DNA of 37,520 nt from an uncultured virus (IMG/VR IMGVR_UViG_3300033463_000052) (Duplodnaviria > Heunggongvirae > Uroviricota > Caudoviricetes): IMG/VR virus record IMGVR_UViG_3300033463_000052. The stretch is one strand, 5' to 3'. The notes under the pieces are model-generated. The model did not search any database, was not told the DNA's origin, and saw nothing but the letters and a program-made list of their open reading frames with translations. A program made the translations under genes and the position numbers. Shown in pieces: positions 8,531 through 15,093 of this stretch (positions are counted from its first letter, which is position 1; every line of letters starts with the position of its first letter).

Positions 8531-8953
8531 ATGGCAAGTAGCGCATGGAAAATTAAAGTTGGTGTAGAACTTGATACAAGTGATATACAAAGTCAATTAA
8601 ATAGTTTTAATGGGAAAATAGATTTAAGTGATTCAACAAGAGGCGTACAGGGATTAACTTTTGCTGGACAACAAATGATGTTAACATATCAAGCCGCCCA
8701 TGCTATATTTTCTAAATCAATTGGTGCAATTTCAAGTATGGCAAATCAAGTTAAGGAATTAGATAGTGCAGTAACAGAATTTAAAAAGGTGTCTGATTTA
8801 TCTGGTTCTTCACTTGATAATTATGTTAATAGTCTTGCAAATGCTGGGTCGATTGTTGCAAGAACTGGTTCTGAAATGGTAGAAGCCGCAACGCAATTTA
8901 GAAAATCTGGGTTTACAGATTCAGAATCAGCACAATTAGCTACTATAGCGGCT
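8531..8953 (+). CDS. Tape measure protein, exon 1
   Basis: 'ELDSAVTEFKKVSDL..ARTGSEMVEAATQF' TMP motif; 141 full codons ending at a U that forms the P1 U-G pair. Confidence 0.9.
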
Positions 8954-9101
8954 TGAGATACAGGCCGAATATATAGTAATATATATAAAGAATAGGGTGA
9001 ACTGCTGGAAACCTAAGTCGAAAGATATGGCAATCAGCAACCAAGATTATGTTGAAATACATAATAAGGCTCAACGACTATCGAAAGCAATCAAGTTTTA
9101 C

Positions 9102-9130
9102 TTGATAAATGTAACTAATTATATTATAAT
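9102..9130 (+). promoter_or_regulatory. Intron-internal sigmaA-type promoter for endonuclease 1
   Basis: TTGATA(9102-07), 17 nt, TATAAT(9125-30). Confidence 0.7.
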
Positions 9131-9264
9131 TAGAATAAGGCGTTTTAACGGATGAAGCAAGTAGAGTAGGAGGAAGTGTCTGCCTCCGAAGCGCCCTACA
9201 TCTTTTTATTTAAGAAGATGATGATATAGTCTTAACTTATAAGAAATTTATAAGGATATTTAAT

Positions 9265-10014
9265 TTGTATAAATTTATGTGGAAAACTAAAAATAATATT
9301 CCTATGAAAGAGGAAATAGCATTTTTAAAATTTGAAGAATATGGCTATACACCTTTAGAACATTATAAAAATAATATGACAAAAATATGTTGTCTTGATA
9401 AAGATGGATATAAAGTAATGATTGCCAGAACATCATTGGGAAAAGTAAAAGAATATCAAAGATTTTCTGTTACTTCAAATCCAGAGAATTATATAAACAA
9501 TATGAATATATTTGGTGAAAGAAATAAATATCCATCTATAGTTTTAGATTATTTACCTTCTACAATAAAGAATCATGTAAATTTAAAATGTAAATGCGAA
9601 TGTGGTAATATTTTTATATGTGATGCAAATTCTTGGAAAAGGAATGAAAAAACAAGATGTAATTATTGCAGTTCAAAGATTTCTAATATAGAAAGAGAAG
9701 TAATGTTATTTTTAAAAGAAAATAATATTACTTATATTCATCAAAAGAAATTTAAAGAATGTAAAAATAAAAGAGAATTACCATTTGATTTTTATTTACC
9801 TTATTATAATATATGTATTGAGGTAGATGGAGAACAGCATTTTTATAATACTCTTTATAGAAACGAAAAAGCTTTTGAACAAAGAAAAATAAATGATAAC
9901 ATAAAAGATAATTATTGTTTATCTAATAATATACAATTAATAAGACTAAGATACAATATTATAAGAAATAATAAATATAAGGAGATATTAAAAGACAAAT
10001 TAAATATCCGTTAA
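9265..10014 (+). CDS. Intron-encoded homing endonuclease (Cys/Zn domains + Vsr/DUF559-like nuclease)
   Basis: CxCxC and CxxC motifs; 'S.IE..V...L...LPFDFYLP.YN.CIEVDGEQH'. TTG start behind AAGGA; ATG at 9277 is an alternative. Confidence 0.85.
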   Translation: MYKFMWKTKNNIPMKEEIAFLKFEEYGYTPLEHYKNNMTKICCLDKDGYKVMIARTSLGKVKEYQRFSVTSNPENYINNMNIFGERNKYPSIVLDYLPSTIKNHVNLKCKCECGNIFICDANSWKRNEKTRCNYCSSKISNIEREVMLFLKENNITYIHQKKFKECKNKRELPFDFYLPYYNICIEVDGEQHFYNTLYRNEKAFEQRKINDNIKDNYCLSNNIQLIRLRYNIIRNNKYKEILKDKLNIR

Positions 10015-10040
10015 ATTGACACTTTAACGTAAAATTTTTG

Positions 10041-10328
10041 ATGTATCAAAATGTAGCTGATACAGCAGTTTCATCACAAGAAGCTGCATCTTCTATTGTT
10101 TCACAAATTCGTGCTTATGGTGAAAGTGCTGAGTTTGCAACACATATTATAGATTCCTATAACGCAGTTGCTAATAACTTTTCTATTGGTACTAATGATA
10201 TATCGAAAGCTATGGAAGTTGCTTCTGCTGGCATGGCAACTTATGGAAATAGCTTTGAACAAACTATTGGTCTTGTAACTGCTGGTACAGAAATTATGGT
10301 TGGACGTAGTTCGCAGGTAGCGAGAGGG
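10041..10328 (+). CDS. Tape measure protein, exon 2
   Basis: MYQNVAD...HIIDSYNAVANNFSIGT.DI..A...GNSFEQTIGL.TAG.EI...SQVARG, a typical TMP core. Confidence 0.88.
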
Positions 10329-10490
10329 AAACAAAAAGCCCCCTGTGTATAGTAATATGCACTAAGAACAATCCTAAACCCAGTAATCCCTAAAGCTCTT
10401 TTACCACAACATAAGGATGAAATAAGCCTCAGTGTGATGGTGCGAAAGTATTAAAAACAAAAGAGATAAGATATGGCAAAAACCTAAGTC

Positions 10491-10519
10491 TTGGCATTTA
10501 TTTAATTTTATAATATAAT
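10491..10519 (+). promoter_or_regulatory. Intron-internal sigmaA-type promoter for endonuclease 2
   Basis: TTGGCA(10491-96), 17 nt, TATAAT(10514-19). Confidence 0.65.
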
Positions 10520-10744
10520 GCAAATGGGTGTTTGGGTGCGAAGTTCCGAATAGGAATGTGTCAAACGACTATCCCTTTGGTGATATAAAATCACAATAGG
10601 AGTAAGGCCGCTATGTCTAAGGCGGTGGGTGAAATTCCCTTAAATTGAAATGGATTGCCCCTTGTTTTATAGGGTGAAGAAATAGTCTGCTCTCATATGA
10701 AAATATGAGGAATAATTGAAGAAGTTTAATTCAAAGGAATTATT

Positions 10745-11665
10745 ATGAAAAAATTAACTATTGAAGAAATGCAAAGTAGAATTAATCAACATAACCCATA
10801 TAATTCCATTATATTGAACGATAATGTTCATCATACTAAAGTTTTATGTGGGAAATGTAATGAAGAATATCAAACAACTTTTCATACTTTATTGAAAAGT
10901 AAATTTACTGTTTGCTCAAATTGTGTTAGACAATTACAAAATACTAAGTTAGCAAATATAGAGGATATTAAACAAGAAATTATATCTTATGGTTTTACAC
11001 CGTTATTTAATGAATACAAAGGTTGTCATAGTTTATTTTGTGTACAAGATATAAATGGATATAAAGGCACATTAAGTTTAGTATCTATGAGACGTGGTGC
11101 TAATATTTCTTATTTTGCTAAATATAATATTTATGCTTTAGATAATTTACGAAAATATTGTATAGACAATGGAATAAATTGCTCTATCCCAAATCAAGAA
11201 TATAAAGGTTGGGATTCGTTAATAAAAATTATTTGTTCTTGCGGGAAGGAATATGAGACTACTGTAACTCATTTTGTGCATGATAATCAGCACCAATGTT
11301 TAGATTGTAGTGGAAGCAAATCTTCTAATGAAAAGATAATAGAAGAATGGTTTAATTTATATAATATCTCATTTATTCCACAATACAAATTTAAAGATTG
11401 TGTATACTATAAAGCATTGCCATTTGATTTTTATTTACCTCAATATAATTGTTGTATAGAAATTGATGGAGAGGGACATGAAAAACCTACAAGATTTAAT
11501 GGTATAGATAAAGATAAAGCACAATTATTATTTAAGCAAACAAAAATTAGAGACAATATTAAAACAAATTATTGTAAAAATCATAATATTAATTTAATAA
11601 GAATTAATTATCATGATATACAAAACAAAAATTATAAAAATATTTTATCTTCAATTATTCATTAA
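10745..11665 (+). CDS. Intron-encoded homing endonuclease (Cys/Zn domains + Vsr/DUF559-like nuclease)
   Basis: Several CxxC/CxC motifs; 'SSNEKII..W..LPFDFYLPQYNCCIEIDGEGH'; paralog of the intron 1 ORF. Confidence 0.85.
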   Translation: MKKLTIEEMQSRINQHNPYNSIILNDNVHHTKVLCGKCNEEYQTTFHTLLKSKFTVCSNCVRQLQNTKLANIEDIKQEIISYGFTPLFNEYKGCHSLFCVQDINGYKGTLSLVSMRRGANISYFAKYNIYALDNLRKYCIDNGINCSIPNQEYKGWDSLIKIICSCGKEYETTVTHFVHDNQHQCLDCSGSKSSNEKIIEEWFNLYNISFIPQYKFKDCVYYKALPFDFYLPQYNCCIEIDGEGHEKPTRFNGIDKDKAQLLFKQTKIRDNIKTNYCKNHNINLIRINYHDIQNKNYKNILSSIIH

Positions 11666-11694
11666 GGTGTGACGAACCTTAGTAAACATTATGG

Positions 11695-14600
11695 CTTAAT
11701 ACTATTGCGGCGAATATAGTTGCCAACCGTGAAGCTTTAAAAAATTTTGGTATAGAAGTTGAAACATCAAGTGGGCAATTGCGTTCTACTTATGATGTTT
11801 TATCAGATTTAAGTAAAATATGGGATAAATTAGATGATACTACCAAGGTTACACTTGGTACAATGTTAGCTGGTAAAAACCAATATAAAGTTTTAGCTTC
11901 AGTTATGTCTAACTTTGCAACAGCTACCAATGCTACTGCAACTGCTTTAGATTCCGCTGGTTCTGCCGCAAAAGAAAATGAAAGATATATGGAATCTATA
12001 GAAGCAAAGGTTACTGCTGTTTCAGCCGCTTTCCAACAAATGGCAACGGCTGTTGTAGATAGTGATGTTGCTAAAGGTGTTTTAGACATAGTTAAAGCAT
12101 TTGCAGAATTTGGTTCTACAGGCGTTGGTTCTGCAATTACACAGATACTTCTTTTAAGTGGTGTTTCTTGGGGTGGATTACAATTATTAGGTCAAAGTAT
12201 TCTTCCCGGAATAATTAATTCTTTTAAACTTCTTTCTGGCGTAAGTTTAAGTGCTTTAGCCGCAGAAACAGGTGTATCTACTTTAGCTATAGCTTTAAGT
12301 GCTTCATTACCTTATATATTGGCTGTGACAGCCGCTATTGTTGGGTTAGTTTCAGCCATTAAAGCGATTAAATCTGCTTATGATGAAGCAAATCCCTCTG
12401 TTGAATCTGCTTATAGTAAAATGGAAGAAGCAAATAATACTCTTCAAGAAGTAGAAGAAAAATATGAAGAAGCTAAAGATAAACTTGAAGAATTAAATAC
12501 GACACCTTATGAAGCAAGAACAGAAGATATACAAGAAGAAATAGAAAAATTACAAGAATTAGTAAGTTATTATGAGCAAATTGCAGAGCTTAGAAAACAA
12601 GATGCACAAGAAGCCGCCGCTAAATATAGTAGAGCGGTTGAAAAAGAGGGTTTAAAAACTGGAAAATATGAAATTTATGGTTCTAATGAAACCCCAGAAG
12701 CAACTGCAAGTAGTTTAGAAGCGGCAGTTTATTATGCATCGAAATTAGCGGCTGGAACTGGTCTTGAAGTTGATTTTTCTAATATGGAAAACGCTGTGAC
12801 CCAATTAGAAAAAGTAGGCGTATATATAAGAGAACAAGTTATAACTATTGAAGATTTTGGTAATCAAGTTTCTTCTCTTTCACAATATTTAAATACAGAA
12901 GATATTGCTGTTTTAAAAAATGCTACTAATCTTGAAATTTTAGGGAAAGAATATAAAAGATTAACTTCTTTAGGTGAAGAATATATTAATTCTCTTAAAT
13001 TACAAGATTTTAATAGTTTAACAGATTCTCAAAAAATATTGTTAACCCAATGGGATTCGATGGTTTTTTCTTATGAATCACTAATAGGAACATTTGCAGA
13101 ATCTAAAGGTGTAACAGTTGAACAGGCAGAAGCATGGTTAGAAGCCGCTGGTGCATTAGGCGAATATGCACAAAATCTTCTTTCCGCTAAAACAGCTTAT
13201 GAACAGTTTAAACAATCAATGGAACAATCTGGGGACTATGATGATAGTTTTAAAGGATTAGTTTCTGTATTTGGCGAATTAAATGGTGAATGGGAAAAAG
13301 GGCAGACTGGTTCAAGGGCGTTTTTAACTGCTTTAGAATTATTAACTGGTCAATCACTTGATTCATCTGAAGCTACAGATTATTTAAATGAACATTTAGA
13401 AATTCTTAATTTGTTATTTGGTGATGCCGAAAGTGGCGGCTCTGGTTTAATTAAAGCTATTCAAGAATTACAAGATGGAACTGATGATTTAGGGGCTTCA
13501 ATAGTTGAAAATGTAGATGGTAGTTTATCTCTTAGTATTACTGATTTTAAAGCATTAGCAGATAATTTAGGAATATCAGAGGGTGCATTATATTCATTAA
13601 CACAAGCACTTAAAGTAATGGGTGTTAATTTTAAATATAATACTTCTGATATGATAGATAGAATAAATGAGCTTGGTGAAGGAATAGTTGAATTTGGTGA
13701 TGGTACAGAGGGGACTACAGTTCATTTTGATAAATTTGTTGCACAAGCAAAAGCCGCTGGTAGGTCAACAGATGAAATTCTTCAAATAGCAGAGGTTTTA
13801 CAAGAAACTTCTGGAATTAATTTAATGGGGCTTGATGATGGATTAGCTTTATTAGGAACTAATTCAGACGATGGTGCTGAAGCCGCTGGAGATTTAGCTG
13901 GGAATTTAGAAAATGTTGCTGGTGCTTCTTCTGGTATTTCTGAAACTTCTTCTGCTGTAAGTGATTTAGCTGGGAATTTAGGAAATGCCGCAAGTTCATC
14001 TACTATTTTATATTCTAATCTTTCTGCTCTTTCTGGTTTAAAATTCCCATCTTTATTTGGTAATGCAAAAGGTACTGATTATGCCCAAGAGGGTGATTCT
14101 TTAGTTAATGAAGAAGGCCCGGAAATTATTCAAAGTGGTGATAAGGCTTATATTGCTGGTGGTGGTATGCCAACAATTACGCACTTACATCGTGGTGATA
14201 AAGTTTTTACAGCGGAAGAAACCAAAGATATATTAAATGGGCAAACTATAGATTCTATTCAAGCCCATGCTAATGGTTCTAAGATTTCAAAATCATCAGT
14301 TGGTATAGTTGGTGCTACCACTACAATTTCTAAAAATACATTAGACAAACTTTCACAGAAATCAGTAACTAAAGGTTCATTATCATCATCTGGTGGTTCT
14401 TCTGCGTCTTCAGCATCTTCTTCCGCTTCTACCGCTAAAGAAGAATTTGACGCATGGCTTAAAGCAAAGAAACACGCTTTAGCTATGGATGAAATTACAG
14501 AAAAAGAATATTATGAAGAATTGGAGAAAATGAATGAAAAATATTTCAAAGATTCTGAAGAATATCAAGATGAATATTGGAAATACCAAGAAGAAGTTTA

Positions 14601-15093
14601 TAAATGGAGAAAAAGTCAGTTAGAAGAAGAAAATAAACTTCTTGAAAAACAAATAGATTTAGAAAAGGCTTTAGGGGAATTAGCTAAAGCTAAAGAACAA
14701 AGAATCCTTGTTTATAAAGATGGAAAATTCCAATATGTTCAAGACTTAGATGCAATTAATGAGGCACAAAGGACTGTTTCTCAATTACAATCAGAACTTG
14801 GGTATGCGTCTGGTACAACAAGTGCTTCTTCTGGTATTCATTTAGTTGGTGAAAATGGGCCAGAATTAAGAGTTCTTAATGGTGGGGACGGAATTATTCC
14901 TGCTGATGCTACAAAAAATCTTTTAAGCTTGGCACAGATGAATACATCCAAATTAGCTGGTAATTTAGGTAAAGCTATGCAAGTTCTTTATTCCTTTAAT
15001 ATAGATAATTTATCTTTGCCAGATGTTAAAGATGCGGCTGGTTTCTTTGAGGGGTTAAAGAATTATGCTTATCAATATAGTTATGCACAATAA
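11695..15093 (+). CDS. Tape measure protein, exon 3
   Basis: Frame open from 11695 (LNTIAANIV...GQLRSTYDVLSDL..W..L; LAGKNQ). Hydrophobic segments, coiled coil and two 'A.GT...LV.E.GPE' motifs. Confidence 0.9.
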   Translation, partial: LNTIAANIVANREALKNFGIEVETSSGQLRSTYDVLSDLSKIWDKLDDTTKVTLGTMLAGKNQYKVLASVMSNFATATNATATALDSAGSAAKENERYMESIEAKVTAVSAAFQQMATAVVDSDVAKGVLDIVKAFAEFGSTGVGSAITQILLLSGVSWGGLQLLGQSILPGIINSFKLLSGVSLSALAAETGVSTLAIALSASLPYILAVTAAIVGLVSAIKAIKSAYDEANPSVESAYSKMEEANNTLQEVEEKYEEAKDKLEELNTTPYEARTEDIQEEIEKLQELVSYYEQIAELRKQDAQEAAAKYSRAVEKEGLKTGKYEIYGSNETPEATASSLEAAVYYASKLAAGTGLEVDFSNMENAVTQLEKVGVYIREQVITIEDFGNQVSSLSQYLNTEDIAVLKNATNLEILGKEYKRLTSLGEEYINSLKLQDFNSLTDSQKILLTQWDSMVFSYESLIGTFAESKGVTVEQAEAWLEAAGALGEYAQNLLSAKTAYEQFKQSMEQSGDYDDSFKGLVSVFGELNGEWEKGQTGSRAFLTALELLTGQSLDSSEATDYLNEHLEILNLLFGDAESGGSGLIKAIQELQDGTDDLGASIVENVDGSLSLSITDFKALADNLGISEGALYSLTQALKVMGVNFKYNTSDMIDRINELGEGIVEFGDGTEGTTVHFDKFVAQAKAAGRSTDEILQIAEVLQETSGINLMGLDDGLALLGTNSDDGAEAAGDLAGNLENVAGASSGISETSSAVSDLAGNLGNAASSSTILYSNLSALSGLKFPSLFGNAKGTDYAQEGDSLVNEEGPEIIQSGDKAYIAGGGMPTITHLHRGDKVFTAEETKDILNGQTIDSIQAHANGSKISKSSVGIVGATTTISKNTLDKLSQKSVTKGSLSSSGGSSASSASSSASTAKEEFDAWLKAKKHALAMDEITEKEYYEELEKMNEKYFKDSEEYQDEYWKYQEEVYKWRKSQLEEENKLLEKQIDLEKALGELAKAKEQRILVYKDGKFQYVQDLDAINEAQRTVSQLQSELGYASGTTSASSGIHLVGENGPELRVLNGGDGIIPADATKNLLSLAQMNTSKLAGNLGKAMQVLYSFNIDNLSLPDVKDAAGFFEGLKNYAYQYSYAQ

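Follow-up and report, generated by a model that had tools for sequence, protein, structure and literature searches.

A mobile group I intron in a phage tape-measure gene with a predicted G-C pair at its 5' splice site

Results

The tape-measure gene and its introns

The window analysed herein is the whole 37,520-nucleotide stretch of DNA of an uncultured Caudoviricetes virus (IMG/VR record IMGVR_UViG_3300033463_000052). To judge from sequence sharing, its DNA comes from bovine gut metagenomes, and the samples that contain its intron 2 span 2019 to 2025. An ORF listing and translation reveal a TP901-type tape-measure gene in three pieces, all on the plus strand. Exon 1 (8531-8953) ends in U8953; in a DNA contig of run X4, position 8953 is followed directly by 10041, which fixes this end. 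Exon 2 (10041-10328) matches PF10145 (E 1.5e-8) and ends in GCG AGA GGG (Ala-Arg-Gly), where its homologues continue as ...QVARG-L.... Exon 3 (11695-15093) starts with CTT AAT ACT ATT (LNTI), directly after ...TATGG, and matches PF10145 below threshold only (18 bits, against a cut-off of 33.2 bits).

Intron 1 (8954-10040, plus strand, 1087 nt) is a group I intron with a canonical U-G 5' splice site, in which U8953 pairs with a G of the guide GGCCG, and with the terminal base G10040. The tape-measure allele in the X4 DNA contig lacks this intron, skipping exactly 1087 nt, and thereby gives exact boundaries; the P1 and P2 hairpins have a fold z of -4.1. A homing endonuclease gene of 249 aa lies within it (9265-10014, plus strand; phrog_559, phrog_9084 and phrog_7140, E 2e-40 to 5e-16). 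Intron 2 (10329-11694, plus strand, 1366 nt), assigned to group I (IA2 type), carries an intact homing endonuclease gene of 306 aa 3' of P9 (10745-11665, plus strand; phrog_559, E 2.9e-45; phrog_9084, E 5.5e-28). The two endonucleases belong to the same homing-endonuclease family and are 33% identical to each other.

The roughly 100 codons around the site of intron 2 are an intron hot spot in relatives (loci L005-L010, L014, L015, L020, L021, L024 and L025; proteins P0124-P0161), with introns after GRS, (V/I/L)(I/L)G, NEV, EIMV, and ARGL or ARGLN. Those after GRS, (V/I/L)(I/L)G and NEV, the three checked, have ordinary U-G sites. The tape-measure gene of one relative, L065, holds at least three group I introns in about 2.3 kb (three sub-threshold hits of the Rfam model RF00028), and the exon that precedes its intron after ARG is only about 60 nt long.

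Boundaries of intron 2

The reading frame at 10317-10328 is GTA GCG AGA GGG. A set of 165 homologues was taken from among the matches listed, 120 through a search with exon 3 and 45 through a search with exon 2. The uninterrupted motif [QK]V[AG]RG-xxx-I occurs in 69 of the 165, and Leu follows ARG in every one of these 69. Only three pairs of cuts in the window yield VARG-LNTI, namely 10328/11694, 10327/11693 and 10326/11692, the last of which leaves a terminal U. Since every solution with a terminal G ends the exon in G, the last exon base would be G, as the original prediction had claimed from the need to restore VARG-LNTI. G10327/G11693 and G10328/G11694 are equivalent on the window sequence alone; the terminal G of the intron is placed at 11694 (plus strand), with the 3' splice site after it, by analogy with two relatives (L065 and L073) that allow a single G-ending solution each.

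Viral loci with relatives of exon 2 number 24, and 13 of them are intron-less at the site of intron 2; the remaining 11 break earlier, at other introns, and leave the site unread. The Gly codon in the 13 intron-less alleles is GGT in seven, GGC in four and GGG in two. Those with GGG, L003 and L011, have the sequence AGAGGG-CTTAAT, which matches the predicted ligation of the window exactly. Because uninterrupted relatives read QVARG-L and intron-less alleles carry the predicted ligated DNA, intron 2 is assigned to 10329-11694. The intact endonuclease ORF, taken together with these two intron-less alleles having the same junction, indicates that intron 2 is a mobile group I intron.

The nearest T upstream of the exon 2 end is T10318. 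A canonical cut after U10318, or elsewhere, would give a protein without Ala-Arg-Gly, and U10318 joined to G11694 would keep the frame. However, U10318 faces no guide G, as had been pointed out at the start together with the loss of ARG; moreover, ARG is present in all 69 uninterrupted homologues and the intron-less alleles match the G-ending join. A cut of this kind is thus hardly credible.

Correctness of the sequence at the site

A sequencing or assembly error could in principle have hidden a true GGT codon and an ordinary U-G site, and GGT does stand at this codon in 7 of the 13 intron-less alleles. Yet a contig from another study (run X22, 2025) shows 0 differences from the window over 10310-10429, with a different exon upstream. 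A second virus record (G001) is 100% identical, although it may share the window's source. Protein P0125 (71% identity in exon 2) terminates in ...SAQVARGKQKAPCV, the read-through tail of the window itself (ARGKQKAPCV), which implies the same first intron bases. In addition, all four intron-bearing relatives known at the DNA level end the exon in GG(G) and have a guide C-run, and a U in the window would face C10339, not G. The X22 contig and the P0125 tail rule out the assembly error that the original prediction had allowed for, and an error of any kind is the least probable of the explanations considered here. The same intron 5' end thus stands in at least three different tape-measure alleles (window, X22 and P0125). 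An X4 contig of 4316 nt spans 10217-12098 with 43 differences and no gaps.

Translation of exon 2 reads into intron 2 at 10329-10352 as KQKAPCV and then meets a stop (8 codons). Proteins P0158 and P0159 stop directly after ARG, as do L065 and L073, whose introns begin with UAA; the first-position U of these two introns could be kept for the stop codon rather than for pairing.

The guide, P1 and P10

A candidate internal guide, AAGCCCCCT at 10336-10344, shows 8/9 complementarity with the ligated junction, the lone mismatch being A10325 opposite C10342. By sequence reading, the 5' strand of P1 is AGAGGG (10323-10328, plus strand), with G10328 as the last exon base. The P1 part of the guide is CCCCCU (10339-10344, plus strand), in which C10339, 14 nt before the end of the P2 5' strand, pairs with G10328; the P10 part is AAG (10336-10338, plus strand), which pairs with the CUU at the start of exon 3. 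P1 accordingly has five pairs and one A-C mismatch, and P10 three pairs. The P1 and P10 guides are contiguous in relatives too (L001, 6 bp; L031, 7 bp; L026, 7 bp; L073, 5 bp). Both the 8-of-9 pairing and the G-C pair at the splice position (G10328/C10339) had been predicted, and all other sequence statements of that prediction check out as well. There is no U within 9 nt upstream of the cut and no U-G pair adjoining the site, so that the usual U-G mark of a group I 5' splice site is absent.

With G-U allowed, shuffling the first 40 intron bases gave an 8/9 guide match in 590 of 20000 cases (3%), and among 5355 forty-base segments of the AT-rich window 788 (15%) reached one. Because such a match is common by chance, it is weak evidence alone, and the case rests on the relatives. 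When the P1 region was folded alone, the lowest-energy register had 4 bp, AGGG with CCCU, in which the last exon G still pairs with a C. An A opposite a C at the fourth pair from the cut (10325/10342) is common to the window, L065 and L073, and is found also in L033 and L037, which have introns at another site; it may be an A-C wobble that is tolerated.

The first intron base is A10329, facing G10338, in the window, and a U forming a U-G pair in L065 and L073. A cut one base on, after A10329 (U in L065) and opposite guide G10338, would make the intron end at C11695 and the protein read ARG-I-NTI. In its favour, GGG is followed in both L065 and L073 by a U able to pair with the guide G, and the product of L073 is unchanged by the shift. 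Against this, the shifted cut would end intron 2 and the L065 intron in C, although a terminal G is universal; the residue after ARG would be Ile in the window and Phe in L065, at a position held by Leu in 69 of 69 homologues; the window has an A opposite the G; and BcISt1, an element of the same layout, splices after G and not after U (PMC4227781). We therefore consider the shifted cut very unlikely, and retain G10328 as the predicted last exon base.

Co-variation of the cleavage pair in relatives

A conserved core motif retrieved 47 viral loci, which represent 31 unique sequences; a guide-specific motif added L073, and the genome collection added four more loci, including L090. Tape-measure genes, interrupted at several sites, house nearly all loci of this intron family. 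The guide base opposite the last exon base keeps a constant spacing from P2, lying 14 nt before the 5' strand of that helix ends. Among 33 unique sequences, the base at this position is C in exactly three (window, L065 and L073) and G in the 30 others. The exon/guide pair is C/G in 21, U/G in seven, G/C in three and ambiguous in two (L030 and L064). C-G is thus the commonest cleavage pair in the family (21/33), occurring at about five insertion sites, and one site is polymorphic, with GGC in L033 and GGU in L037. C-G pairs have reportedly been described for two fungal introns as well, by Hur and Waring in 1995.

Automatic calls of 3' splice sites often fell in the frames of endonuclease genes, and only junctions that matched tape-measure motifs were kept (L026/L050, L029/L056, L031, L044, L062 and L073). 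C-ending junctions were checked in this way through the protein: L029/L056 gives GTAFK-TISMRIRG, with a 6-bp P10, and L031 gives DIQQ-ASVTELIAGKNQ, with a 7-bp P10. LKT-ISMRIRG is uninterrupted in intron-less alleles.

Relatives at the ARG site are L065 (= L074 and L075), L073 and, by its 5' end, L090, which sits one base upstream. Their proteins have diverged (TKVARG-LRTIGNN, SKVARG-LRTIGNN and SKVARG...). L065 and L073 have CGAGGG followed by the intron and a guide with CCCCC, and in each only one G-ending 3' site gives ARG-LRTI. The intron of L065 is about 340 nt long, without an endonuclease gene; that of L073, at the same site, has a related endonuclease. In L090, CGGGG is followed by AAAC and the guide is UCCC, and the contig ends inside the endonuclease gene, before the 3' site. 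A pattern made of guide plus P2 was found at two loci in viral contigs (one being a copy of L065), at one locus in metagenome contigs, itself a copy of L065 with 100% identity, and at 0 loci in genome contigs. A G-ending exon and a C-rich guide vary together, in L065, L073 and L090 as in the window, which is the co-variation that the original prediction had asked to look for.

These comparisons indicate that the intron family keeps a base pair at the cut and does not require the wobble, the G-C members representing a compensatory double change. In intron 2 of the window, the predicted 5' exon almost certainly ends in a G paired with a C of the guide, and not in a U paired with a G.

The ribozyme fold

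The predicted P2 hairpin (10345-10362, plus strand) has compensatory changes at 6 of 7 pairs and appears in the single-sequence fold as well. A ribozyme core at 10369-10710 (plus strand), obtained by alignment-based pair counting, comprises P3 (10369-73/10653-57), P4 (10379-83/10532-36), P5 (10388-90/10526-28), P6 (10543-47/10553-57), P7 (10567-72/10682-87), P8 (10659-62/10671-74) and P9 (10692-98/10703-09), all on the plus strand. Two candidate hairpins of the P7.1/P7.2 type (10581-10593 and 10607-10626, plus strand; the naming is our own assignment) lie between P7 and the 3' strand of P3, and one of them covaries. Sequence reading adds a hairpin just before the 3' splice site (11664-11680, plus strand), and L001 has a hairpin at the same place.

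RNAalifold, applied to 19 diverse members, predicted 61 pairs, 39 of them with compensatory changes. The pair count used a hand-drawn group I topology from P2 to P9, with P3/P7 as a pseudoknot, and 19 relatives. In this topology 96.5% of 797 cells are paired and 27 of 42 pairs change on both sides; 0 of 500 shuffles were as good, and sliding the partners by 1-3 columns left 29-44% paired. P7 covaries (GACUAU/AUAGUC, GAUCAU/AUGAUC and GAGUAC/GUACUC), and in the window row all core helices are intact. In the family alignment, no change in J4/5 or J5/4 specific to the G-C members was seen.

The Rfam group I model RF00028 had no hit in the window, and relaxing E to 10 gave none either. It gave 36 bits on the endonuclease-less relative L065, below the 50-bit cut-off, and it also misses both IStrons of Clostridium phage c-st. 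Because the model misses two published IStrons, its silence on the window says little. Four weak Rfam matches in the window (snoRNA, miRNA and sRNA) were set aside as chance. The covariation argues that intron 2 is a real group I (IA2-type) ribozyme.

RNA and activity

No joint of exon 2 to exon 3 was found in the contigs of four runs, the lone RNA-library run (X24) having thin coverage. A contig of X24 contains intron 2 minus 868 nt of the endonuclease gene (10761-11630), in a slightly different tape-measure allele; it is a natural endonuclease-less derivative, and, because the 5' exon sequence is still present, it represents unspliced RNA or DNA. We infer from sequence both the splicing of intron 2 at the RNA level and the mode of its site choice.

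Alternatively, this copy of the intron may be crippled or helped, that is, the gene may be dead, or a protein cofactor may be needed, e.g., the intron's own endonuclease as a maturase. The lack of a wobble pair at or beside the site, the weak P1 and the failure to find spliced RNA in those contigs would all fit such a state. On the other side, the core helices in the window row and the endonuclease ORF are both intact, and the same 5' end recurs in the three or more alleles named above, in samples from 2019 to 2025, which fits a spreading, tolerated element in an essential gene. A crippled or helped copy is in our view unlikely. Intron 2 is probably active, since its core is intact and covarying and its endonuclease gene is intact.

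Discussion

Relationship to group B IStrons

According to Tourasse, Stabell and Kolsto 2014 (PMC4227781), IStrons fall into two groups. Group B elements are inserted after AGGG, TGGG or GAGG, and CGG forms their 3' end. The exon upstream of them has G as its last base, while that of other group I introns is "virtually always a U (or exceptionally a C)". The U that follows is the first intron base, in a U-G pair shifted by one, after which comes the loop, and a long AU-rich inverted-repeat stem is also described (PMC4227781). RT-PCR of ligated exons and intron circles placed the in vivo splice site of BcISt1, an element from the Bacillus cereus group, after G (PMC4227781).

The window core gave two BLAST matches in Clostridium phage c-st (E 8e-7 and 5e-6), both just upstream of annotated IS transposase genes (OrfA/OrfB), with aligned blocks shared through P3-P9. 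By ORF content, these are CbISt3 and CbISt4 of PMC4227781; the lengths that we obtain, 2048 and 2554 nt, differ by a constant 5 nt from the 2053 and 2559 given in that paper. As we read the c-st record, ...AGAGG precedes CbISt4, whose first base is U, and ...UUGGG precedes CbISt3, which opens with AAAC and has ...AAGCCC UGUGUAU later on. The window resembles CbISt3, having GGG, AAAC and then AAGCCCCC UGUGUAU. The c-st IStron with OrfA/OrfB at 125800-130000 of the record (L089) appears to interrupt a gene whose downstream part is YomI-like (SP-beta), together with a transglycosylase part; the frame is open from ...GUU GGG into the sequence after CGG, and this IStron may also lie in a tail or tape-measure-like gene.

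Intron 2 and the group B IStrons thus have in common an IA2-type ribozyme, a GG(G)-ending exon set against a guide C-run, and a homologous core. They differ in cargo, which is a homing endonuclease in the window and IS607/IS200-605 transposase genes in the 3' part of the IStrons. By the description in the 2014 paper, they differ also at both ends: the window starts with A (A10329/G10338) and ends in ...UAUGG, whereas the IStrons start with a U in a shifted U-G pair and end in CGG. The shifted U-G is absent in the window and apparently also in P0125, L090 and CbISt3.

Other known systems

An ordinary (non-IStron) IA2 intron of Turicibacter, with a GG-ending homing site and related to the group B ribozymes, is described in PMC4227781; like intron 2, it is a non-IStron group I intron with a GG-ending exon, a likeness that concerns its description only. 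Tape-measure introns are known from prophages of the Bacillus cereus group, where TMP-IVS1 to IVS3, of IA1/IA2 type, occupy three sites (Tourasse and Kolsto 2008, PMC2504315). They too have invaded several sites of a tape-measure gene, with P1 adapted to each; in contrast to the window, the paper reports no G-ending site and describes nearly every group I intron as lying after a U (PMC2504315).

IA2 introns of Staphylococcus phage K and Twort-like phages (e.g., in lysK), which lie in other host genes, share 72-77% identity with intron 2 along about 120-150 nt in the 3' half of the core (P3'-P8-P7'-P9). We take these introns to be canonical U-G ones.

A model for splice-site choice

Intron 2 is probably an IA2 mobile intron with an endonuclease gene, of the group B IStron lineage, that is cut after G10328 and joined after G11694. 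The guide CCCCCU (10339-10344) would pair with the exon end AGAGGG, with the A-C mismatch that L065 and L073 have in common, and AAG (10336-10338) would pair with the first exon 3 bases CUU, placing P10 contiguous with P1. Given these pairings, guanosine would attack after G10328, held in a Watson-Crick pair with C10339, and joining of the exons after G11694 would restore ...QVARG-LNTI.... It is apparently the geometry of P1 with respect to P2, and not a U-G wobble, that decides where the cut falls in this lineage.

The original prediction had suggested an active ribozyme variant with a different splice-site recognition. The G-C site is supported by the relatives, but its novelty was overrated, as splicing after G was published in 2014 (PMC4227781). 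Such splicing is therefore not new in kind, being on record for the homologous group B IStrons; what is new is an endonuclease-bearing member in a phage structural gene.

A broader proposal is that the cleavage pair of the family can be U-G, C-G or a flipped G-C at one fixed position, that window-type copies (also P0125, L090 and, in our reading, CbISt3) do so without even the neighbouring U-G proposed in PMC4227781 to be the signal, and that, if they splice well, the 5' site is chosen by helix geometry relative to P2. We put this forward tentatively, our own estimate falling slightly short of an even balance. Either the shifted U-G is dispensable or window-type copies splice less well; if the shifted U-G matters, the window copy could be impaired.

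Implications

If window-type copies splice well, they would be a natural counter-example to the wobble-receptor rule derived from the Tetrahymena, Azoarcus and Twort ribozymes. In annotation pipelines and covariance models, every group I intron is assumed to follow a U; introns of this sort are therefore missed or mis-bounded, with the tape-measure gene called as three fragments. Within a single homologous family, cleavage pairs of three kinds (U-G, C-G and G-C) occur naturally, some beside an adjacent U-G and some not. This panel would suit asking how much the wobble contributes to splice-site choice, a question left open by PMC4227781.
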